The notes under the pieces were generated by a model. The model saw only the letters and a list, made by a program, of their open reading frames with translations. It had not been told where the DNA came from and did no database searches. From a virus (Duplodnaviria > Caudoviricetes), in IMG/VR virus record IMGVR_UViG_3300021399_000125, positions 1-64,000 of that record: 64,000 nucleotides of DNA; one strand, written 5' to 3'. The position numbers were made by a program, and so were the translations under genes. Shown piece by piece: positions 6,279 to 48,533 of this stretch (positions are counted from its first letter, which is position 1; every line of letters starts with the position of its first letter).

Positions 6279-7418
6279 TCAGGCTGCGTATCTCATCAGG
6301 TTAATTGCGGCGTTGTAATCGCGGTCGATTGTGAGCCCGCATTCCTGGCAGTGATAAACCCGGTCGCTGAGCTTCAGATCGCGCTTGACACAGCCGCAGC
6401 AGGAACAGGTTTTACTGCTTGGATAAAACCGATCTGCGGTAACGAGTCTGATTCCATTCCACTCAGCCTTGTACTGGATCTGTCGCAGGAATTCACCGAA
6501 GCACTGCTCCTGAACCGCCTTTGCCAGATGATGATTTGACATCATGCCGGTGACGTTCAGATCCTCGACCGTAATACTGCATGGGAGCCTGGAAATCAGC
6601 TCGTGTGTAACCTGATGTAAATAGTTATTGCGAATACCGCGTTGGCGACGGAAGAGCGCTCGAAGTTTCTCTTCTTTGCGCTCGATGTTGTTGGTCTTTA
6701 CATAACAGACTCCGCGCTTATTCGCCTCGTATTTCCGGGAGATCGTGCGCTGGGTGTGCTTAATCTTCCGTTCAAGCTTGCGCATCTTTGCGGACTTGTT
6801 GATGTTATGATAGACCAGCCCCTCGCTGCCGAATGCAACGGTCGCCAGCTCTTTTACCCCAAGATCGATGCCCATTGGGATGTCTGTCAATTCGGGTGCT
6901 TGGCTCTCACACTCCATATTGAATGACAAAAACCACTTGGGTGCGTCGTAGGAGATCCGAACATTGTAGTACTTGCTACGCTCGTCGGATTTCTCTGGGA
7001 AGGTAAAGTCGGATTTGAATTTGACCTTCCCGAGCTTTTGGATTTGGCAGGTGGAACCTGAAAAGTAAAATCGGTCGGTGCGTACCGGATAATTCGACTT
7101 ACTTCTCTTCCTGCTTTTAAATTTTGGATGTTTGGAAGTTCCATTGAAAAAGCGCTTATACGCCTTATCGAGGTCCCGGCAGACGATTTGCAGACTTGTA
7201 CTCGAAACTTCATATAACCAACCATGTTCGCCGTCATTCTTCAGCGGTTTTAACATGTTGATCATGTCAAAAGCGCCAAGATATTTGCCGCCCGCTTCGT
7301 AGTTCTTCTGCTGATAATCCAGCATCCAGTTCCACACATACCGGCAAGCGCCGATATGCTGCCAAATCTTTTGCTCCTGTTCTTTCGTGGGATAAATTCG
7401 GATTCGATAACCTCTCAT
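6279..7418 (-). CDS. tnpB: RNA-guided endonuclease TnpB
   Basis: N-terminal YRIRIYPTKEQ; RuvC GIDLG, VEDL, DRDYNAAINL all intact; zinc finger CSCCG...CQECG. Confidence 0.95.
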   Translation of the reverse strand: MRGYRIRIYPTKEQEQKIWQHIGACRYVWNWMLDYQQKNYEAGGKYLGAFDMINMLKPLKNDGEHGWLYEVSSTSLQIVCRDLDKAYKRFFNGTSKHPKFKSRKRSKSNYPVRTDRFYFSGSTCQIQKLGKVKFKSDFTFPEKSDERSKYYNVRISYDAPKWFLSFNMECESQAPELTDIPMGIDLGVKELATVAFGSEGLVYHNINKSAKMRKLERKIKHTQRTISRKYEANKRGVCYVKTNNIERKEEKLRALFRRQRGIRNNYLHQVTHELISRLPCSITVEDLNVTGMMSNHHLAKAVQEQCFGEFLRQIQYKAEWNGIRLVTADRFYPSSKTCSCCGCVKRDLKLSDRVYHCQECGLTIDRDYNAAINLMRYAA

Positions 7419-24751: not shown

Positions 24752-25144
24752 ATGAAGGTAAAGGTTCTCGGCAATGCTATGGTCATCACCAGCGAGGTTC
24801 GTCTGTCCGACATCATCGCTCTCGCGAAGTCCAACCCCGACGCCCTGGTGCTGTACGAGGGTGAGGGCGAGAAGCGCCATCAGGTTTTCCGCGTCGGTCT
24901 GTGCATCGGCGGCGAGGCCAAGATCAGCGACAAGGGTGTGGTTTTCAACGGCAAGACCGGCCCGGAGGAGCACGTCACGGTTTCTCTGATCCTGCCCGGC
25001 AATCCGGCCAACCCCCGTGAGTACGTCGCGGATACCTACGGCATCGCGCTGAAGCGCCTGAAGGCCTGGGAAGAGACCGTCCCCGGCATCATGGCCGCAG
25101 CCAAGGCGGAGAAGGACGCCATCCTCGCTCTGATCGAGGACTGA
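24752..25144 (+). CDS. hypothetical protein upstream of the Ubl gene
   Basis: 130 aa, GGAGG RBS. Confidence 0.7.
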   Translation: MKVKVLGNAMVITSEVRLSDIIALAKSNPDALVLYEGEGEKRHQVFRVGLCIGGEAKISDKGVVFNGKTGPEEHVTVSLILPGNPANPREYVADTYGIALKRLKAWEETVPGIMAAAKAEKDAILALIED

Positions 25145-25272
25145 TTTCTGCCGGCGGTCTTCCGCCTGCAGCCGCGAACGCGCCGTCTGGGTTTTCGGGC
25201 GGCGCGTTCTTCCACAATACATCACAACCATCCAAAACAATTCACATTCTTATATCTTGAAAGGAGATAATT

Positions 25273-25515
25273 ATGGTTAGCATCACTGTTTCCAAGACCA
25301 CCGGTATGGGCACCACCGTCATTATGGACGAGGCCTACGAAACCCCCAACGACGCCGTCGAGTCTGCCGGCCGCGCCGGTCTGAACGGTCTGTGGTTCCT
25401 CAACGGCCGCAAGCTCAGCAGCGACGACATGGACCGCCCCCTGTCCGAGTTCGGTCTGGCGGACGGCGCCAACGCCACTCTGACCAACGTGGTCAAGGCC
25501 GACAGCGCGGCCTGA
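25273..25515 (+). CDS. ubiquitin-like (beta-grasp) small protein
   Basis: 80 aa; beta-beta-alpha-(LNGRKL..D.DRPLSEFGL)-beta pattern as in Ub/YukD-like folds; upstream of E2-like/JAB/E1 genes. Confidence 0.65.
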   Translation: MVSITVSKTTGMGTTVIMDEAYETPNDAVESAGRAGLNGLWFLNGRKLSSDDMDRPLSEFGLADGANATLTNVVKADSAA

Positions 25516-25548
25516 TTCCCAAGCCCCGCTCCGGCGGGGCTTTTCTAC

Positions 25549-25635
25549 GGGGAATTGGCGGAACAGGCAGACGCAACGGATTTAAAATCCGTTGTCCCTT
25601 TGGACGTACCGGTTCGAGTCCGGTATTCCCCACCA
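25549..25635 (+). tRNA. tRNA-Leu(TAA)
   Basis: GGGGAAT/ATTCCCC, long variable arm, anticodon TAA, CCA. Confidence 0.9.
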
Positions 25636-25677
25636 CGCAGAACACTGCAACAAAGGAGAATTTAAAAGGAGGGTATT

Positions 25678-27114
25678 ATGTTTCTCGACTCAATCGGAAG
25701 AACCGCCTTTACCACGCCGGAGGCGGAAGCGTTCTTCAAAAACAAGATCGTCAGCAACACCGGCCCGGTGGGCGACGCGGCAATGATCTCCATGCTCCGC
25801 GCCATGCTGGGCAAGCGTATGCCGGCGGGCGACGTGGTCACCTATAACACAGGCAGGCTCTACGGTCCCAGGGAATTCCAGACCGCGGCCGCCGTGGCAA
25901 GCGACATCTCCGAAAACGTCTCCAACGGATCTGATGGCACCGGGTGTCTTACCGTGGTTTCCGTCGGTTATCCGGAGGACGCCCGTAAGCAGTTTTTCAG
26001 CCTTGTGGGCGAGGCCATGAAAACCCTTGGGAACTGGGAAGAGGTCCAAAAGTACGAGTACTGGTTCAAGAAGTCCTTCCAGACGAAGTGCTTCATCCAT
26101 CGCGGCAACAAGAGCACCATGGTTTTTGTGGAGCGTGCCACGTCCAGAAAGAACCATCTGCTCATGGCTGCGGTTCCCGTGATGTTTCCGTGGTATTTCC
26201 CAGAGAACACGGTTTACCGGCCTCTGGAGATAGATCTGTGCAAGTCCTGTAAAGAGGAATCTCCTGCCAAGTTTCTCGATCTTCTGCAGCAGGCGGCAGG
26301 GGAGTACAACTTCCGGGACGCCTTTGTCAGATCTGCGCTGACCGGGTTTGAGAGCGGCTATGAGCGCCGCGCCATGGAACATGCCGCCGCTGACATCCGC
26401 CGGTTCAACAGCCAGATCGACAACTACTTCCGGGAAATCGAGAATCTGCGCCGGAGACTGCTGGAAAAGCAGATCATTGTCTCCGGCTGTAAGGAGCGCA
26501 TGAAGTCCAGGGACCCTGCCGAGGAAACTCCTCTGGTCCGGTATTTCCTGAGCTCCGAAGCCGCACATCTGGTTTCTGCGGACGAAAGCTCCGTGGAATT
26601 CATCGCCACCGGGTATCTGGATCTCTTCGACGAGGACGAGGCGGAAAAGGTCATCGAAAACGAGTACAGCGCCCTGTACGAAAGCGTCTCCACGTCGCGT
26701 CAGGCGGATTACAAGCTGCTCCTGCGCGGTCTGTTTGTGGAGCAGCAGATCCGGCTTCGCACCTGTGCGGCTTTCAGGCTCTACGCCGAGTCGGAGGCCT
26801 GCGGTTTGGAGGACTATGAGTTTGACGGCCGCCTGCCCAACGCAGAAACCTATTTCCCGAACCCCCATATCCAGGGCTATCACTGCCTGGGCGACAACCG
26901 CGGTCCTGCGGAACGTGCGATCCTGGACGGCAATTATCCCGCTGCTGTGGATCAGCTCATCGCGGCCTGCCACAACCTGAACTGGCGCGACGGCACGGTC
27001 GTCGAGTATTTCTCCGGCCAGCTGCTTGACGAGGAGAACCCGGTGATCGAGCTTCCTACAGGCGAGCTGGTTTCCCCGGCAGAAGCGATCCAGTGGTTGA
27101 AGGACGATCGATGA
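25678..27114 (+). CDS. coiled-coil protein with C-terminal prokaryotic E2-like domain
   Basis: PNPHIQGYHCLG resembles the HPH/N...C E2 active-site motif; context next to JAB and E1. Confidence 0.55.
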   Translation: MFLDSIGRTAFTTPEAEAFFKNKIVSNTGPVGDAAMISMLRAMLGKRMPAGDVVTYNTGRLYGPREFQTAAAVASDISENVSNGSDGTGCLTVVSVGYPEDARKQFFSLVGEAMKTLGNWEEVQKYEYWFKKSFQTKCFIHRGNKSTMVFVERATSRKNHLLMAAVPVMFPWYFPENTVYRPLEIDLCKSCKEESPAKFLDLLQQAAGEYNFRDAFVRSALTGFESGYERRAMEHAAADIRRFNSQIDNYFREIENLRRRLLEKQIIVSGCKERMKSRDPAEETPLVRYFLSSEAAHLVSADESSVEFIATGYLDLFDEDEAEKVIENEYSALYESVSTSRQADYKLLLRGLFVEQQIRLRTCAAFRLYAESEACGLEDYEFDGRLPNAETYFPNPHIQGYHCLGDNRGPAERAILDGNYPAAVDQLIAACHNLNWRDGTVVEYFSGQLLDEENPVIELPTGELVSPAEAIQWLKDDR

Positions 27115-27134
27115 GAAGAAGGAGGAGACGAAAA

Positions 27135-28022
27135 ATGGCAAAGGTAATCCGCATCACCCCCGATATGCATGACCAGCTGCGCCAGGATTTTGAGGCATAT
27201 CTGGCATCCGGCAAATGCCAGGACGGCACGTTCACCTTCCACAAGAAGCTGGGCAACGTATCCGGCCGCCGGGCAAAGCTCCACATCCAGCCCGCTGCCT
27301 GGAGCAAGATGCTCCTGCTGCTTCTCACCAACGACAAGGAGGTGGGTTGGCACGGTTTGGCGTCCCGCTGTGACGCCCCGGATGAGTATTCCATCCATGA
27401 CATTGCGGTTTTTCCGCAGCAGGTCACCGGCACCACCGTGGAGCCGGACGAGGAGGAGTATCACAGCTGGCTTTTCAGCCATGACCCCGCGATCCGGGCC
27501 AAGATCTGTATGCACGGCCACAGCCATGTCAACATGAGCGTCGGCCCCAGCGCCACAGACCTGGAATATCAGCGGGATATTCTCCAGCAGCTGGACGAGG
27601 ATGAGTTTTACATTTTCATGATCTGGAATAAGCGGCTGGACTGCTCTGTGAAGGTCTACGACGTGAAGAACAACATCTTCTTCGAGACCGCAGACTGTGA
27701 CATTGTCCTGGATCAGCAGGGTTATGACTATCACGAGTTCCTCAAGTCCGCCAAGGCCATGGTCAAGTCCGCTCCGGTTTACGCCTCCGGCTACGGCTCC
27801 TACCAGTACGGCACCTATAAGGGCGGCTCCGGGTATCCCTACTACCCCGCGGGTTCCCACAACTGGGATGATGACGACGAGGACGACGACGACGAGGATC
27901 TGCCGGTTCCGAAGCCCGCACCCGCCGCCCCGATCAGCGTCGCCAAGGGACGCAAGACCAAGCGCGGTTCCAAGCCCCGGGTTCCCGTCCAGAACAGCAA
28001 GTACGACATCTACGATGACTGA
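27135..28022 (+). CDS. JAB/MPN+ (JAMM) metallo-isopeptidase
   Basis: EVGW and HGHSHVNMSVGPSATD match the E...HxH-x7-S-xx-D JAMM motif; Tyr/Gly-rich and acidic tail. Confidence 0.85.
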   Translation: MAKVIRITPDMHDQLRQDFEAYLASGKCQDGTFTFHKKLGNVSGRRAKLHIQPAAWSKMLLLLLTNDKEVGWHGLASRCDAPDEYSIHDIAVFPQQVTGTTVEPDEEEYHSWLFSHDPAIRAKICMHGHSHVNMSVGPSATDLEYQRDILQQLDEDEFYIFMIWNKRLDCSVKVYDVKNNIFFETADCDIVLDQQGYDYHEFLKSAKAMVKSAPVYASGYGSYQYGTYKGGSGYPYYPAGSHNWDDDDEDDDDEDLPVPKPAPAAPISVAKGRKTKRGSKPRVPVQNSKYDIYDD

Positions 28023-28036
28023 AAGGAGACAGGCGT

Positions 28037-28711
28037 ATGAATCTTTCCAAGAGCCTTGAGTATTTCAACCCCGCCGCGGTTTCCGGCCGCGTCCACATTC
28101 TGGGCTGTGGGTCTGTTGGCTCCACCATCGCCGAAAACCTGGTCCGCTGCGGTCTCACCAAGTTCACCCTTTGGGATTTTGACCTGGTCGAGCCCCACAA
28201 CCTGGTCAATCAGATGTTCCGCGCCCAGGACGTAGGCCGGAACAAGGCGGAGGCGCTGTTGGATCTGCTCTGTGAGATCAACCCGGAGGTCCGGGAGAAC
28301 ACCAAGCTCAAGCCAAAGGGCTGGAACGGGGAGAACCTGAACGGTTTTGTGTTCCTCTGCGTAGACAACATCGATCTGCGCCGCAAAATCGTCCAGCAGC
28401 ACATGAGTAATCTCAATGTAAAAGCTGTGTTTGACGTCCGTACCCGGCTTGAGGACGCCCAGCATTACGCGGCGGACTGGTCTCATCAGACCGACCGGGA
28501 GGCGCTGCTTGCCACCATGGATTTCTCCCATGACGAGGCGGTTTCCGAGACGCCCACCTCTGCCTGCGGCGTCACCCTGGGTGTCTGTCCCACGGTGCGG
28601 ATCATCTGTGCCTATGCGGTTTCAAACTTCATGAACCACATCAATGGCAAGCCCCTGCAAAAGGTGGTTCTCGCGGACGCATTCCAGTTTGGTTTGTGTC
28701 ATTTCGAGTAA
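28037..28711 (+). CDS. ThiF/E1-like adenylyltransferase
   Basis: ILGCGSVGS, DFDLVEPHNL.NQ, DVG..KA, CVDN..R; candidate catalytic Cys in SACG. Confidence 0.9.
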   Translation: MNLSKSLEYFNPAAVSGRVHILGCGSVGSTIAENLVRCGLTKFTLWDFDLVEPHNLVNQMFRAQDVGRNKAEALLDLLCEINPEVRENTKLKPKGWNGENLNGFVFLCVDNIDLRRKIVQQHMSNLNVKAVFDVRTRLEDAQHYAADWSHQTDREALLATMDFSHDEAVSETPTSACGVTLGVCPTVRIICAYAVSNFMNHINGKPLQKVVLADAFQFGLCHFE

Positions 28712-28746
28712 ACGTCAGCGCCGGCGCTGATGATATAAATTAAAAT

Positions 28747-29073
28747 TGCTGTAACGCATTTCTCAGTAAGCTTGAGAACATCTGCCTATGGCGGATGTAA
28801 CGTAACGTGAGGTAAAGGGGTGGCAGCCACCTGCAGCAGCTGAAGGCGCCATAGAACTCCAGTTGGCCTGGTCTGATCGCTAAAGCAAGATCTCGTGTGC
28901 CAAAACGGCCGACAACCACCGGTTACTTCACAATTACGCGGCGTAATCAAACGCAATATTATTTAAAAGGCAAAAAGGACTTGACAAATTCAGATCCTCA
29001 CGCCAATCCGCGCAAGGATTGCACGAGTCAGCTCCTGGTCGTCTTTACGTCATACCCAATACAGGTTACAGCA
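28747..29073 (+). ncRNA. retron msr/msd-like RNA, copy 1
   Basis: Terminal inverted repeat TGCTGTAAC/GTTACAGCA, then G-CATT, hairpin, CATCTGCC-TAT-GGCGGATG hairpin, structured cargo. Confidence 0.7.
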
Positions 29074-29142
29074 GAAAGGAATTGTTTTATGAATGTCGAT
29101 CCTTCTGAGCAATACGAAGGATCTTAATCGGAGGAGTCACAT

Positions 29143-29712
29143 ATGGACTTATACGCCTACGCACAAATCGAAACCCTGTCAGAGCTTGCGAAAGCCAACG
29201 GTATCGAGGTTCCGCGGCTTCGCGGTTATCGCCTCATGGCACAGGAGCCACCCATTACACCGGAGGAAAGGAAGGAAAGTGAGACCAGCGCTATCCGCCA
29301 TCTTTACGAAGAAGCCTGCGAATACGATGTCGCGTTTTCCCTCCATCCTGCGTGGGTTGAATACTCTTCGAGAACCGATCTGACCAAGAAACGGTTTTTG
29401 ACCAAGGACGGAGAGCTCCGCTGGGATTTGCTTCACGGCAAGCGCCGCAAGAATATGAAGTATCTGATCAAGCTGATCCGTCGCCGGATGCGTGCTGATT
29501 ACGACATGTGGAACAAGTATGCCGGTAAGGACGGGGTTTTGTACATTCATACACGCTGCGGCGGCAACAAATGGGAATACTACGGTTGCAAAGCGCTGGA
29601 AAAAGAACCCTGGTATCTTGACCGTGTCGACGACTGGTTTGACGGCAGCTACTGCAGCATCTATGCCAAGGTTCAGCCTCCTGAAGCAAAAGAGTCGGAG
29701 AATCAAAACTAA
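29143..29712 (+). CDS. hypothetical protein
   Basis: 189 aa, GGAGGAG RBS. Confidence 0.7.
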   Translation: MDLYAYAQIETLSELAKANGIEVPRLRGYRLMAQEPPITPEERKESETSAIRHLYEEACEYDVAFSLHPAWVEYSSRTDLTKKRFLTKDGELRWDLLHGKRRKNMKYLIKLIRRRMRADYDMWNKYAGKDGVLYIHTRCGGNKWEYYGCKALEKEPWYLDRVDDWFDGSYCSIYAKVQPPEAKESENQN

Positions 29713-29964
29713 CATTTGTGAGGTTTCAAGATGATGGTTTATCTGATAACTGACGATTGCGGAATGAACGTCTTTGCAATTTTCTCATCAAAGCAGAAGG
29801 CAATAGACTGGCTTGAAAACAAGGCTGTCCAGGAATATGGATGGACTCCAGGCGAGGTTGGCTCGGCTCAGATAAAGCCGTGGCCGGTTGATGCCGAATA
29901 AAACTTAACTTTAATGGATGTTGCGCTGAAAGGGGTGACCAGAATGTTCAAAAAGGAATTCATC

Positions 29965-30216
29965 ATGAAAAGAGTATTAGCAGTTTTTCTTGTTGTCCTG
30001 CTTTTTGCGGCGATTCTTTCCGGATGCAAAGTGTATGTGCCGGGAGATTGTGACACAAGGTTCAACATCATCTCCGAATCTTTGACCGGCGACGGCGGTT
30101 TCGTGGTTTTCGAGGACACAGAGACCGGTGTCATGTACGTTTTCTACAAAGCGCATTCCGGCGGCGGTCTTTCGGTTCTCTACAATCCGGACGGAACAAT
30201 CATGACAAGGAATTAA
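29965..30216 (+). CDS. putative lipoprotein
   Basis: MKRVLAVFLVVLLFAAILSGC lipobox. Confidence 0.65.
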   Translation: MKRVLAVFLVVLLFAAILSGCKVYVPGDCDTRFNIISESLTGDGGFVVFEDTETGVMYVFYKAHSGGGLSVLYNPDGTIMTRN

Positions 30217-30269
30217 CCATTTATCGGAACACGAAGGATAACCATGACAATCGAGAAAGGAATGGTTTT

Positions 30270-31424
30270 ATGTACTACGTTGTCACAAAGCTGAGTTCCT
30301 ATACCCACCAGATGACCTTTGAAGAGTTTCTCGGCCTGCCCATGGACGCCTCCTTTGCGCTCTACGACGGCAGCAGGCAGAGCACCTCCACCAGAACCTT
30401 TGAGGTCCCGCAGATCCCCGCCCGCCTCAGAGGCGCAGCCTATACCGAGGCGGCCATCGACGCCATGGCCTCATTTTGTATCGAGCACAGCGCTCTGTAT
30501 GCCGTCCCCCGGCACGAGCTGTACCACGAGTTCCGCATCCCGAAGCGGTCCGGCGGGTTTCGCAAAATCAGAGCCCCGCATCCCGAGCTCAAGGCGGCGC
30601 TGTATCAGCTGGGCGGTTTGCTGAACCAGTACTTCGGCGCCAACCGGATCTATCACACCTCTGCATACGCCTTTATCAAAGGCCGGTCTCACATCGACTC
30701 TGTCCGCGTCCACCAGCAGAACGAGAGCTGGTGGTTTGCCAAGCTGGATCTGAAGGATTTCTTCGGCTCCGTCACCAAGGAATTTGCCATCCGGATGCTC
30801 TCCATGCTTCACCCATTTGCCGAGGTGCTGGAGCGTCAGGACGGCCGCGAAGTGTTTGAGAACGCCCTGGAGCTCGCCTTTCTGGATGGGGTTTTGCCCC
30901 AGGGCTCTCCGCTCTCTCCGCTTCTCACCAATCTCATCATGGTCCCCATTGACTTCACCCTCTCCCGGGCGTTTCGTCAGTTTGCCGGCGGCCGTGCGGT
31001 TTACACCAGGTACGTAGACGATATGCTCATCTCCTCCCGGCTCCAGTTCAACGTCCGTGACGTGGAAGCCCTGCTTCAGAACACCTTCTCCTCCTTTGGG
31101 GCGCCCCTGCGTCTCAATCCAGAAAAGACGCGCTATGGCTCAAGGTCCGGCAGCAACTGGAATTTGGGAGTGGTGCTGAACAAGGACAACAATATCACCG
31201 TTGGGTATAAGAACCTGCGCCGGTTTAAGTCCATGCTGTACAACTTCCGTCGGGATAATCTCCTGGGGGTTTCCTGGGAGATCGGCGATATCCAGCACGC
31301 CCTGGGCTTGTACGCCTACTACCGCATGGTAGACGCTGCCACGGTGGACAACATCCTCAATGAATTCAAAAGCAAATATGGATTTGATGTCATTCAATCC
31401 ATGAAGCAGGCGCTCAGCCTGTAA
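30270..31424 (+). CDS. retron-type reverse transcriptase
   Basis: IPKRSGGFRKIRAP, SAYAF..GRS, KLDLKDFF, LPQGSPLSP, YTRYVDD, KTR, NLG; 384 aa without maturase/endonuclease extension. Confidence 0.9.
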   Translation: MYYVVTKLSSYTHQMTFEEFLGLPMDASFALYDGSRQSTSTRTFEVPQIPARLRGAAYTEAAIDAMASFCIEHSALYAVPRHELYHEFRIPKRSGGFRKIRAPHPELKAALYQLGGLLNQYFGANRIYHTSAYAFIKGRSHIDSVRVHQQNESWWFAKLDLKDFFGSVTKEFAIRMLSMLHPFAEVLERQDGREVFENALELAFLDGVLPQGSPLSPLLTNLIMVPIDFTLSRAFRQFAGGRAVYTRYVDDMLISSRLQFNVRDVEALLQNTFSSFGAPLRLNPEKTRYGSRSGSNWNLGVVLNKDNNITVGYKNLRRFKSMLYNFRRDNLLGVSWEIGDIQHALGLYAYYRMVDAATVDNILNEFKSKYGFDVIQSMKQALSL

Positions 31425-31426
31425 CC

Positions 31427-31745
31427 GTTCTGCAAACGCATTTTCCCCTCCGGGAAGCATCTGCCTATGGCGGATGTATTGTACTGCCTGGATAAAAACC
31501 ACGGCAGGAAGGAACCCAGTAAAGTCGCGATTCATGTCTCGAACTGTTTCGCAAATTTTCGCGACGCTGTACAATGCGAAACGCCCGCCGTCTCACGGCT
31601 TAAACCCCAAGATCCACACGGGTTTATCCGCATCGACACGAAAATAAATTTACGGTCGAAGATCAGGGAGCGAGCCATCTGAGTGGCTCCAGACGGCCGC
31701 AGCCCGGCATCGCGGCCGCGCACACTCTCTTAAGGTTTGCAGAAC
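31427..31745 (+). ncRNA. retron msr/msd-like RNA, copy 2
   Basis: Inverted repeat GTTCTGCAAAC/GTTTGCAGAAC, then G-CATT, hairpin, and 21 nt identical to copy 1 (CATCTGCCTATGGCGGATGTA). Confidence 0.7.
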
Positions 31746-36025: not shown

Positions 36026-36940
36026 ATGAATATCCAAAGCCTGAGCATCGTAGTCCCAAACAAGGACTGCGTCAACAAATGTCCGTTTTGTGTATCCCGC
36101 ATGCATTGTGAGGAATACAGAAATCAACTGAACGAGAACCTGCCGTTTTTCGATCTGTATCTGAATGATTATCTGAAACGGCTGCAGTTCGCAAGAGACA
36201 ACGGCTGTAACACCGTTATGCTGACCGGTACGTCAGAGCCTCAGCAAAACAAGCAGTTTCTCACCTGGTTTGGGATGTTCCAGCGCATGCTGAAAAGCCC
36301 CTTCCAGTGGGTGGAAATGCAGACAACCGGCGTCATCCTGGACGAGGCGTACCTTCGCTTTCTCCGCAATCATGTCGGCGTCAACCTGATTTCCCTGTCT
36401 CTGTCGTCACTGCGTTCAAAAGAGAATTGCGACATCATCGGCTGCCCCGACAAGCTCCGCTTTGATCTTGATGCGCTCTGTGCGCTCATCAAGCGCTACG
36501 ATTTCTCACTGCGGCTGAGCATCAATCTGACCAACGTTTTTGACGGCCTGTGTCAGCCCGACGAAAACGGATGTATCAATCCTGACGCAGCGCGGGCTAT
36601 CTTCAACAGATGTGAAGCACTCGGTGCTGACCAAGTAACATTCCGTGTGTTGTACAGTGATAGGACAAGCGACACGCCACAAAGTCATTGGATTGCTAAA
36701 CATGCGGCCAACGCCGAGACTGTCACACATCTCAAGCTCTACGTACAGCGAGAGGGCACCAAGCTTGGACAATTGCCTTTCGGCGCCGCCAAATACAGTA
36801 TCCATGGTATGAGCACCATCATCGATGATGACTGTATGGCAAAGAACGTCAAGTCTGATGAAACCTACAAGTATCTGATTCTGCGACCCAATTGTAAGCT
36901 CTATTCCAGCTGGGACGATAAGGCAAGTCTGATTTTTTAA
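36026..36940 (+). CDS. radical SAM protein
   Basis: CVNKCPFC motif, LTG.SEP. Confidence 0.85.
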   Translation: MNIQSLSIVVPNKDCVNKCPFCVSRMHCEEYRNQLNENLPFFDLYLNDYLKRLQFARDNGCNTVMLTGTSEPQQNKQFLTWFGMFQRMLKSPFQWVEMQTTGVILDEAYLRFLRNHVGVNLISLSLSSLRSKENCDIIGCPDKLRFDLDALCALIKRYDFSLRLSINLTNVFDGLCQPDENGCINPDAARAIFNRCEALGADQVTFRVLYSDRTSDTPQSHWIAKHAANAETVTHLKLYVQREGTKLGQLPFGAAKYSIHGMSTIIDDDCMAKNVKSDETYKYLILRPNCKLYSSWDDKASLIF

Positions 36941-47267: not shown

Positions 47268-47375
47268 TGTTGGAAAAAACGGCGCCCGGAAACCCGTTGT
47301 TTTCCAAGGGATTCCGGCACTTATGCACCTGGATTATATATGCAAGATAATCACTTGAAACCGGAGGAAACAACC

Positions 47376-48533
47376 ATGATTTACTTTGATAACGCAGCCA
47401 CCACCAAGCCCCTGCGTGAGGTGCTGGACGCCATGCGATACGCCTATGAGGAGTACGGCAATCCCGGCTCCAGGCATATCGCCGGCGCGTCGGCCAGGTC
47501 CGCCATGGATCACGCAAGATCAGCCATCGCATCCAGACTCCACGCCGGCGATGATCAGATTCTCTTCACCGCCGGCGCATCAGAATCCAATACCATGGTT
47601 TTCCGCGGTCTGGCAAAGCATCTGCTGAAGGCCGGGAAAACCAATCTCATCGTCTCTCAAATCGAGCATGACTCTGTCATCAACGCCGCAAGATCACTGG
47701 TCAAGGACTTCGGATTTTCCGTCACCTGGCTTTTGCCGGATGAAACCGGCAGGATCAGCGAGGAGCAGGTCTCCGCTGCCATCCTCCCGGAAACCGGGCT
47801 CTGCTCCGTGATGTACGTCAACAACGAACTTGGCACCGTCAACCCCGTCAGCAAGATCGGGGCGCTCTGTCATGAGCACGGTGTTCTGTTCCATACCGAC
47901 GTCACCCAGGCACTCAGCGCCTACCCCATAGATGTCGGATATCTGAACTGCGATTTCCTGTCCGCATCCGCCCATAAGATTCACGGACCCATGGGGGTCG
48001 GGCTTCTGTACGCCAAGGATACGTCCCTTCTGACACCGCAAATCTACGGCGGTGAGGATCAGGAGCTCGGCCTCCGCGGCGGCACCGAAAACGTCCCTGG
48101 CATTGCCGGGTTCGCCTCTGCGGTTTCCGCTCTGGATCTTTGGCGTGTCTCCTGGCAGCAGGATATCCGCGCCGTCAGAGAGCGGTTCCTCCAGGCGCTT
48201 GAATACTCCCTGAAATCCAAGGGGATTCCGGATTCCATGGTTTACACCGTTGACCCCGCGCACACCGTGCCAAATATTCTCAGCCTGCGGTTTCCCGGCA
48301 TCGACTCCGAAACCATGATGGCCATGCTCTCCCAGGTGGGGGTGTGCGTCTCCTCGGGTTCTGCCTGCCGTGCCCACTCCTCAGACCCCAGCCTGGTCCT
48401 GCTTTCCCTTGGCCTGTCCGCAGACGAAGCCCGCAGTACCCTTCGGGTTTCCTTCTCCCATTTTAACACCCAGGACGAGGCCGCCGTGGCGGCCTTCCGG
48501 TTTGCGGACGTAGCCTCCATGCTTTTGCAGTAG
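47376..48533 (+). CDS. iscS: cysteine desulfurase (IscS/NifS family)
   Basis: IYFDNAATT, YGNPGS.H, EHDSV, VNNELG, SAHKIHGP (PLP Lys), RGGTEN, SSGSAC. Confidence 0.95.
   Translation: MIYFDNAATTKPLREVLDAMRYAYEEYGNPGSRHIAGASARSAMDHARSAIASRLHAGDDQILFTAGASESNTMVFRGLAKHLLKAGKTNLIVSQIEHDSVINAARSLVKDFGFSVTWLLPDETGRISEEQVSAAILPETGLCSVMYVNNELGTVNPVSKIGALCHEHGVLFHTDVTQALSAYPIDVGYLNCDFLSASAHKIHGPMGVGLLYAKDTSLLTPQIYGGEDQELGLRGGTENVPGIAGFASAVSALDLWRVSWQQDIRAVRERFLQALEYSLKSKGIPDSMVYTVDPAHTVPNILSLRFPGIDSETMMAMLSQVGVCVSSGSACRAHSSDPSLVLLSLGLSADEARSTLRVSFSHFNTQDEAAVAAFRFADVASMLLQ

Follow-up and report, generated by a model that had tools for sequence, protein, structure and literature searches.

Does a bacteriophage carry a ubiquitin-type protein conjugation system of its own, and why should such a system stand directly beside a reverse transcriptase (RT)? 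The question is raised by a block of genes on the plus strand of a 64,000-nucleotide stretch of phage DNA (the window), which belongs to record IMGVR_UViG_3300021399_000125, a gut phage sequence of 98,174 bp with an estimated completeness of 83%. An initial annotation of this DNA had described, in one orientation, genes for an 80-residue beta-grasp-like ubiquitin-like protein (Ubl), a 478-residue protein with a PNPH...CLG motif proposed as a conjugating enzyme (E2), a JAMM protease and a ThiF-type activating enzyme (E1), together with a tRNA-Leu gene. We find all of them as described, with P-N-P-H at residues 394-397 and C-L-G at residues 403-405 of the 478-residue protein. The start then given for the block, position 24752, is the start of a further gene absent from that description, which encodes a conserved protein of 130 residues (p130). 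The best explanation, to which we assign a probability of about 0.6, is that the block is a phage-borne ubiquitin-type conjugation cassette with a BilABCD-like gene order and the additional p130, forming one genetic unit with a retron-type RT and its non-coding RNAs.

The block begins with p130 (24752..25144) and continues with the Ubl gene (25273..25515), a tRNA-Leu(UAA) gene (25549..25635, found by ARAGORN and Rfam), the gene for the 478-residue protein (hereafter E2L, 25678..27114), the gene for a JAB/JAMM metalloprotease (JAB, 27135..28022) and the gene for a minimal E1 (28037..28711). An RNA cassette follows, and a retron-type RT (30270..31424) is the last protein gene of the conserved block. 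The enzyme genes are closely spaced, with gaps of 20 nt between E2L and JAB and 14 nt between JAB and E1, and the E1 start is preceded at 8 nt by AAGGAG.

This order is found again in related phages, whichever gene is used for the search. The four E2L homologues found first, at about 30% identity, have the same order ending in the RT and differ in their flanking genes. Among 14 IMG/VR loci retrieved with E2L and 31 retrieved with a P-N-P-H..Y.C.G DNA pattern, the order is the same wherever the locus reaches far enough. In a search with the RT, the full module lies upstream of all seven relatives at 39-44% identity, and five distant RTs (24-26% identity) are without it. E1 relatives occur on 334 viral contigs, the best 80 of which were analysed as loci: the RT lies downstream of E1 in 80 of 80 and the full six-gene order is present in 74, the other six being four loci cut by the contig end and two that are arranged differently. 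The arrangement is not due to chance, since all related loci that reach far enough share it. The link between module and RT suggested by the initial annotation withstands the test of independent assortment, module and RT clade occurring together in every locus found from either search direction. Among 185,579 species genomes, E2L was found in 4 contigs of metagenome-assembled genomes, which, set against the 334 viral contigs, indicates that the cassette is restricted to phages. A blastn comparison with GenBank phages gave no match; tblastn found one record of an uncultured faecal phage. Our literature search returned papers on Bil, CBASS (cyclic oligonucleotide-based antiphage signalling system) and Bub, none of which connects E1, JAB or Ubl genes with a retron or RT or deals with such kits in phages.

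The Ubl is recognised by none of the profile libraries Pfam, NCBIfam, PHROG and PADLOC, and word-based searches for homologues of the Ubl and of p130 gave back the query alone; relatives of both were taken from neighbouring loci. The ESM Atlas model of the exact Ubl sequence (predicted template modelling score, pTM, 0.65) has as structural neighbours clusters of DDI1, ubiquilin, UBX, ubiquitin-L40 and ThiS, with TM scores of 0.61-0.70 over 69-74 of the 80 residues, as well as three unnamed phage clusters. By language-model features the nearest named clusters are ubiquitin/Rad60-SLD, TmoB and YukD, which are beta-grasp families, and a profile of 26 homologues gave sub-threshold matches to SAMP2, PF1061 and another Ubl in the Protein Data Bank (PDB). 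The structural neighbours of the predicted model therefore support the beta-grasp fold proposed earlier.

The C-terminus of the Ubl offers a clue to how it would be used. Lys75 and Ala79 never vary, and Asp77 and Asn78 are nearly invariant. Among 62 distinct sequences the domain ends in DNA (56), DGA (3), DSA (2) or VNA (1), that is, always in Ala. The protein stops exactly at this Ala in 38 of the 62, with ..KADNA as the usual tail; it runs 1-3 residues further in 15 and 18 residues further in one, and in eight it continues directly into p130. The Ubl of the window, with its tail ..KADSAA, has Ala79 at the invariant position and Ala80 as a one-residue overhang. An invariant Ala end with variable overhangs or a p130 fusion is, as read from these sequences, a new observation. 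Variable, disposable overhangs behind a constant reactive end are the hallmark of a Ubl matured by its cognate protease. In Bil, the deubiquitinase BilC pre-processes precursors of the Ubl BilA (Chambers et al., preprint), whose C-terminal Gly is fully conserved. The CD-NTases (cGAS/DncV-like nucleotidyltransferases) conjugated by Cap2 of CBASS have Gly or Ala as their last residue, and one that naturally ends in Ala does become conjugated (PMC10097602); the invariant Ala of the phage Ubl conforms to this rule. One Ubl variant (L026:7870-7905) has a 12-nt insertion with an in-frame TGA before the Asn-Ala codons, so that the called protein ends in ..KAD, which could be an assembly error or a real truncation.

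A candidate for the maturing protease is encoded two protein genes downstream. The open reading frame (ORF) listed for JAB (27093-28022) opens with GTG; we place the start at the ATG at 27135, because all homologues begin at a matching Met-Ala/Ser-Lys and a strong ribosome-binding site, AAGGAGGAG, lies 8 nt upstream. Numbered from this Met, E69, H129, S130, H131, S139 and D142 are invariant in 28 homologues and make up a JAMM zinc site, E..HxH(x7)SxxD. The claimed role as JAB protease is firm on this motif and weak on profiles: PADLOC JAB matches the protein of the window with E = 1.8e-4, and Pfam Prok-JAB is matched below threshold in 6 of the 28 members. The C-terminal third (27800-28022) is of low complexity, with a Tyr/Gly-rich stretch, an Asp/Glu run and a Lys/Arg-rich end, and this pattern is conserved in kind, not in sequence. 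As a nucleic-acid-binding tail it would be one route linking JAB to multicopy single-stranded DNA (msDNA), the product of retrons.

The E1 role is firm. Pfam ThiF matches the 224-residue protein with 81.6 bits (cut-off 28.1; E = 6e-23), and NCBIfam and PADLOC models of ThiF/MoeB and of the E1 half of CBASS Cap2 match its nucleotide-binding part. In 16 diverse homologues G23-C-G25-x-x-G28, D47, D49, N55, N58, Q59, K70, D110, R115 and P173-x-S175-A176-C177 are invariant. The GxGxxG motif, the Asp, Asn, Gln and Lys residues of the ATP site and Cys177 indicate an intact adenylation site together with a conserved cysteine. The enzyme is without a second adenylation domain and without a ubiquitin-fold domain. 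About half of the related loci encode, between JAB and E1, a very acidic protein of 150-200 residues with a Met-Thr-Arg start and a long Asp/Glu tail (L003:3126-3575, L004:7549-8001, L016:9496-10023); it is not found in the window and has no Pfam match.

For the E2-like role claimed for E2L, fold, topology, invariant His and Cys residues and gene order speak in favour, and sequence profiles do not. E2L belongs to a large family of 2318 clusters at 50% identity (E up to 1e-3), nearly all of about 480 residues and unannotated. Across 147 members D33, W172, H397 and C403 are invariant, and H397 and C403 remain so after the most distant loci are added. The AlphaFold2 model of the whole protein (predicted local distance difference test, pLDDT, 94) consists of an alpha/beta domain (residues 1-220), a 55-residue helix (224-277) and a C-terminal domain (285-478); refolded alone, the latter reaches pLDDT 96.3 and pTM 0.90. 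An exhaustive VIA-align search with the C-terminal domain returned 123 of 48,161 chains at a Z-score of at least 2, the best being 4.5. Judging from the entry titles, we assign at least 46 of the 50 best matches to UBC/E2 (ubiquitin-conjugating), RWD or UEV folds, and the E2s among them include 1yrv, 3fn1, Ubc9, Ubc13, UbcH5, UbcH7, UbcH10, UBE2O and UFC1. Also matched are Cap2 (7to3_A), with Z 3.7 over 92 residues at a root-mean-square deviation (rmsd) of 4.0, and the bacterial BilB (8tyz_C), with Z 3.5 over 85 residues at an rmsd of 3.4. Since the Z-scores lie individually below the noise guidance of the tool, the argument for an E2 fold rests on the coherence of the list. In topology the domain presents a helix, two strands, an inserted helix pair, two strands, the P-N-P-H loop, the Cys six residues further on and three helices; His397 and Cys403 thus sit between the beta-meander and the next helix, which is the position of the E2 cysteine. 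Because the list of folds is coherent, the topology agrees and the gene occupies the E2 slot of the Bil order, we regard E2L as a probable E2-like transfer enzyme.

By its sequence E2L lies outside every described E2 family. A Pfam scan of 27 E2L C-terminal domains gave no E2 family, and PDB profile searches with E2L (and with JAB) found nothing. Prok-E2_C sequences for a profile-profile comparison were sought in 401 Bacillota genomes, none of which scored above the cut-off. VIA-align matches of the full model were dominated by the long helix and uninformative. In the N-terminal domain (25678-26340, residues 1-220) D33 and W172 are accompanied by the nearly invariant R41, R47 and H160. Foldseek matches of the full model to MoaB, MogA and gephyrin (probability 0.25-0.47, E 0.17-0.64) are too weak to use, although no other search gave a hint about this domain.

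These features leave room for another reading of E2L, in which the Ubl, E1 and JAB act without an E2, as do archaeal SAMP, Thermus TtuB and Urm1, and E2L is a scaffold, a sensor or the real effector of the retron, using its His/Cys pair for another reaction. The missing sequence evidence for an E2 and the modest Z-scores speak for it, the UBC/RWD fold also occurs in non-catalytic adaptors, with RWD domains filling much of the match list, and neither the large N-terminal domain nor the 55-residue helix is a feature of E2s. Against this, His397 and Cys403 are invariant at the E2-equivalent place, whereas RWD and UEV domains have no conserved cysteine, and the gene stands where Bil operons have their E2. 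We consider an E2-free system unlikely, though it is the strongest competitor of a complete conjugation cassette.

p130 is encoded in every complete locus. The protein lacks conserved Cys and His residues and has no match in Pfam, PHROG or a PDB profile search; its Atlas model is poor (pLDDT 0.51), and hhalign gives a probability of 0.3% for homology with the Ubl. A GC-rich hairpin (25176..25209) follows p130, and a terminator-like hairpin with a T-run (25523..25546) follows the Ubl gene. Counted with a simple stem finder, a perfect stem of at least six G-C pairs occurs after p130 in 57 of 71 distinct loci (shuffles, 1 of 71) and a GC hairpin after the Ubl gene in 51 of 73 (shuffles, 0), compared with 13 of 76 after E1 and 1 of 75 after the RT. 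The G+C content at third codon positions (GC3) of p130 and Ubl exceeds that of the four enzymes in 69 of 78 loci, with a median difference of +0.10; in the window it is 0.85, p130 taken by itself also having 0.85, versus 0.73-0.82 in the enzymes. The own GC hairpins and raised GC3 of these two genes are, like the Ala end, new observations of this analysis. Because of the Ubl-p130 fusions, the hairpins after both genes and the higher GC3 of both, we tie p130 to the Ubl. The two would form an abundant, stoichiometric pair, with E2L, JAB and E1 as catalysts reached by read-through. As first partner or target of the Ubl, p130 is the leading candidate.

The tRNA gene is also a recurrent part of the block. 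A tRNA occupies the spacer between Ubl and E2L in 59 of 95 distinct spacers (Leu-UAA 49, Met 8, Tyr-like 2), for example in loci L003, L004, L005, L011, L012, L014 and L016. It may mark a site where processing cuts the p130/Ubl transcript off from the enzyme genes, or simply be a favoured insertion spot. In one sub-lineage the same spacer holds a gene for RNase H1 with an N-terminal hybrid-binding domain (L006:6115-6759, relatives in L007-L010 and L015; Cauli_VI 1e-21, RNase_H 3e-13). Maturation of retron msDNA uses RNase H; the phage record of the window itself has no RNase H match.

Among known systems BilABCD is the closest. The order Ubl-E2-JAB-E1 is the same (Chambers et al., preprint; also the CEHH operons), the Ubl is predicted to be a beta-grasp protein, and the short-overhang precursors correspond to the pre-processing by JAB that has been shown for Bil. 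The differences are considerable. Bil is found in bacterial defence islands and the present cassette in phages; the Bil Ubl ends in an invariant Gly and the phage Ubl in Ala; type II BilD combines an inactive and an active adenylation domain with an inserted Cys domain, whereas the E1 here is a single domain of 224 residues; the E2-like domain is contained in a 478-residue, three-part protein without a sequence match; and p130 and an obligatory RT with RNAs are added. The PRTRC cassette of mobile elements (TIGR03735-03742) likewise joins ThiF-like, JAB-like, E2-like and small beta-grasp proteins, yet only the E1 matches it (TIGR03736, 31.9 bits against a cut-off of 144.75) and no other PRTRC model is hit. 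The nearest phage precedent are tail assembly proteins I and K of lambda and T1, where a Ubl is fused to a second domain and a JAB-NlpC peptidase is predicted to release it (Iyer et al. 2006, PMC1779556). The fusion of a phage Ubl in front of another small domain and the presence of a JAB are shared; that pair, however, comes without an E1 or E2, belongs to the tail gene cluster and has a Ubl ending in Gly, while the block described here is in the early/replication arm.

Type II CBASS resembles the cassette in other respects, which allow a regulatory reading. The best profile matches of E1 and JAB are to the E1 domain of Cap2 and to Cap3, Cap2 accepts a C-terminal Ala, and the kit is strictly tied to a nucleotide-polymerising enzyme. 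The Ubl could accordingly be put on parts of the system itself, p130 or the RT, switching cDNA synthesis on or off in the way that type II CBASS primes its CD-NTase, and the Ubl-p130 fusions do resemble a built-in conjugate. Cap2 is, however, a fusion of E2 and E1, whereas E1 and E2L are separate genes here, with an RT as partner; in CBASS it is the polymerase itself that becomes conjugated, whereas the phage has a separate, dedicated Ubl; the E1 matches are limited to the generic ATP-binding part; and nothing physically links p130 to the RT. PADLOC detected no CD-NTase or cyclic-nucleotide effector family among the seven proteins submitted to it. We judge a circuit of this kind improbable, somewhat more so than a system without E2.

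The RT brings the cassette into the neighbourhood of retrons. It matches RVT_1 (6e-23) and PADLOC RT_II-A (1e-43), and scores 162 bits against the NCBIfam model of the retron St85 RT, below the cut-off of 235. RNA cassette 1 (28747..28960) carries a conserved 26-nt handle (28779-28804) with more copies at 31458 and 32054. The handle starts 68 nt downstream of the E1 stop; between that stop and the cassette there is no terminator-like site. A 16-nt perfect palindrome (28715-28730) directly after the E1 stop is followed by a TGnTATAAT-like site (28731-28739), whose predicted start fits the 5' end that the initial annotation gave for this RNA. As evidence for a promoter of its own the site was rejected, TGnTATAAT-like sites being no commoner across the 80 loci than in shuffles. 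Since the -10-like site of the window is not conserved elsewhere, co-transcription of the module with the RNA cassette and the RT is still plausible. Retrons consist of an RT, an msr-msd RNA and an effector, fall into 13 types and are known for RT-RNA modules that swap effectors (Mestre et al. 2020, PMC7736814). The phage unit shares with them an RT nearest to the type II-A and I-A retron RTs and has putatively structured RNA cassettes adjoining it. It differs in that its RT stays below the retron cut-off, in having three RNA cassettes, in being phage-borne and in a candidate effector outside the 13 types; ThiF, JAB and ubiquitin are not mentioned by Mestre et al. (2020, PMC7736814).

Kit and retron might nevertheless be two independent early-region modules that lie side by side and are co-inherited in one phage lineage. 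All loci come from related large gut phages, so that shared descent alone would give co-occurrence, and genes are inserted between E1 and RT in some loci. The window is one of these, with an ORF of 189 residues (29143-29712) and a DUF6440 ORF (29914-30216), which we consider optional inserts because contigs of related strains skip exactly 29094-29720 and 29903-30254. Two observations oppose mere adjacency: the gene order is kept down to about 20% E2L identity while both flanks change, and no locus has one half alone. We think independence of the two halves quite unlikely and continue to favour one genetic unit of conjugation cassette, RT and RNAs.

A sulfur-carrier pathway of the ThiS/MoaD-ThiF type, with a Ubl thiocarboxylate serving the thiolation of tRNA or DNA, can practically be set aside: ThiF is the best NCBIfam match of E1, the Ubl has ThiS as one of its structural neighbours, tRNA genes lie around the block and the phage encodes a possible sulfur source in an Aminotran_5 protein of the cysteine desulfurase type (47340-48533, E 8e-76) as well as a radical-SAM protein (36026-36940), but the Ubl tail (..DNA or ..DSA) is without the Gly-Gly of ThiS/MoaD carriers, which have no E2 or protease partner, whereas JAB and E2L are always present here and, like the Ubl precursors, would be unneeded for sulfur transfer, and the desulfurase gene is 19 kb away, unlinked to the block, present in just two of five related phages and absent from a 92%-complete relative that carries the block.

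The setting of the block agrees with the phage early region proposed for it, as the surrounding phage genes confirm. The minus-strand arm encodes an endolysin, a portal protein, an exonuclease and a tyrosine integrase. From about 22 kb the plus-strand arm runs through small genes and tRNAs to the Ubl/RT block and on to ArdA, the radical-SAM protein, the cysteine desulfurase, DnaB, a primase and a DNA polymerase III alpha subunit, and this gene content places the block in the early/replication arm of a large tailed phage. Tyrosine recombinases are found in three of three near-complete relatives, and for this reason the lifestyle may be temperate. A transposase gene (6279-7418, phrog_506, E 2e-119) lies among the phage structural genes.

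Several points weigh against a complete conjugation cassette and have to be set beside the evidence for it. The evidence consists of sequences and predicted models. All 62 Ubl domains lack the C-terminal Gly that is invariant in BilA. The 224-residue E1 has neither a separate Cys domain nor an E2-binding domain. E2L carries N-P-H instead of the H-P-N of E2s, no Pfam, NCBIfam, PADLOC or PDB profile recognises it as an E2, Foldseek against the PDB finds nothing for either the full model or the C-terminal domain, and its structural Z-scores are low (best 4.5), each of them below the noise guidance. p130 has no recognisable fold and no catalytic residues. Many of the related loci come from one metagenome project, and the sole evidence of expression consists of three short, exact contigs from an RNA library of the source sample on p130 and E2L, for which carry-over of DNA is possible.

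The chemistry that we propose (trimming, adenylation, thioester formation and transfer) is inferred from the conserved residues, the folds and the precursor forms. The Ubl would be made either ready for use or as a precursor, with one additional Ala in the window and elsewhere with 1-18 further residues or the whole of p130. JAB would trim it and expose the invariant Ala79. The minimal E1 would adenylate the carboxylate of Ala79, take the Ubl onto Cys177 and hand it to Cys403 in the UBC-like domain of E2L, whose N-terminal domain and long helix may choose the target. The Ubl would finally be ligated to an amine of this target, a link that JAB could reverse. By analogy with the exchangeable effectors of retrons, the most likely role of the kit is that of effector or regulator arm in a phage retron, and the phage would use it against host defences or rival phages. 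A more specific and tentative proposal, which we hold to be possible though less likely than not, is a new, phage-only retron type with Ubl tagging as its effector arm, in which the RT and its msDNA would sense a host defence, a rival phage or some other event of infection and gate the attachment of the Ubl to host or competitor proteins, with or without p130.

Descriptions of Ubl conjugation in prokaryotes have until now presented it as a defence of bacteria (Bil, CBASS, Bub). If the present proposal is true, the offensive use of a ubiquitin-style system by a phage would be the mirror image of bacterial Bil. In hundreds of uncultured gut phages there is a complete-looking kit that is always tied to a retron-type RT and is built from protein families without a Pfam entry, one of them with 2318 clusters at 50% identity. 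Should the chemistry be confirmed, ubiquitin-type tagging would be established as something that bacterial viruses do themselves, a new class of effector would be added to those of retrons, and a compact set of E1, E2, protease and tag that works through a C-terminal Ala would become available.

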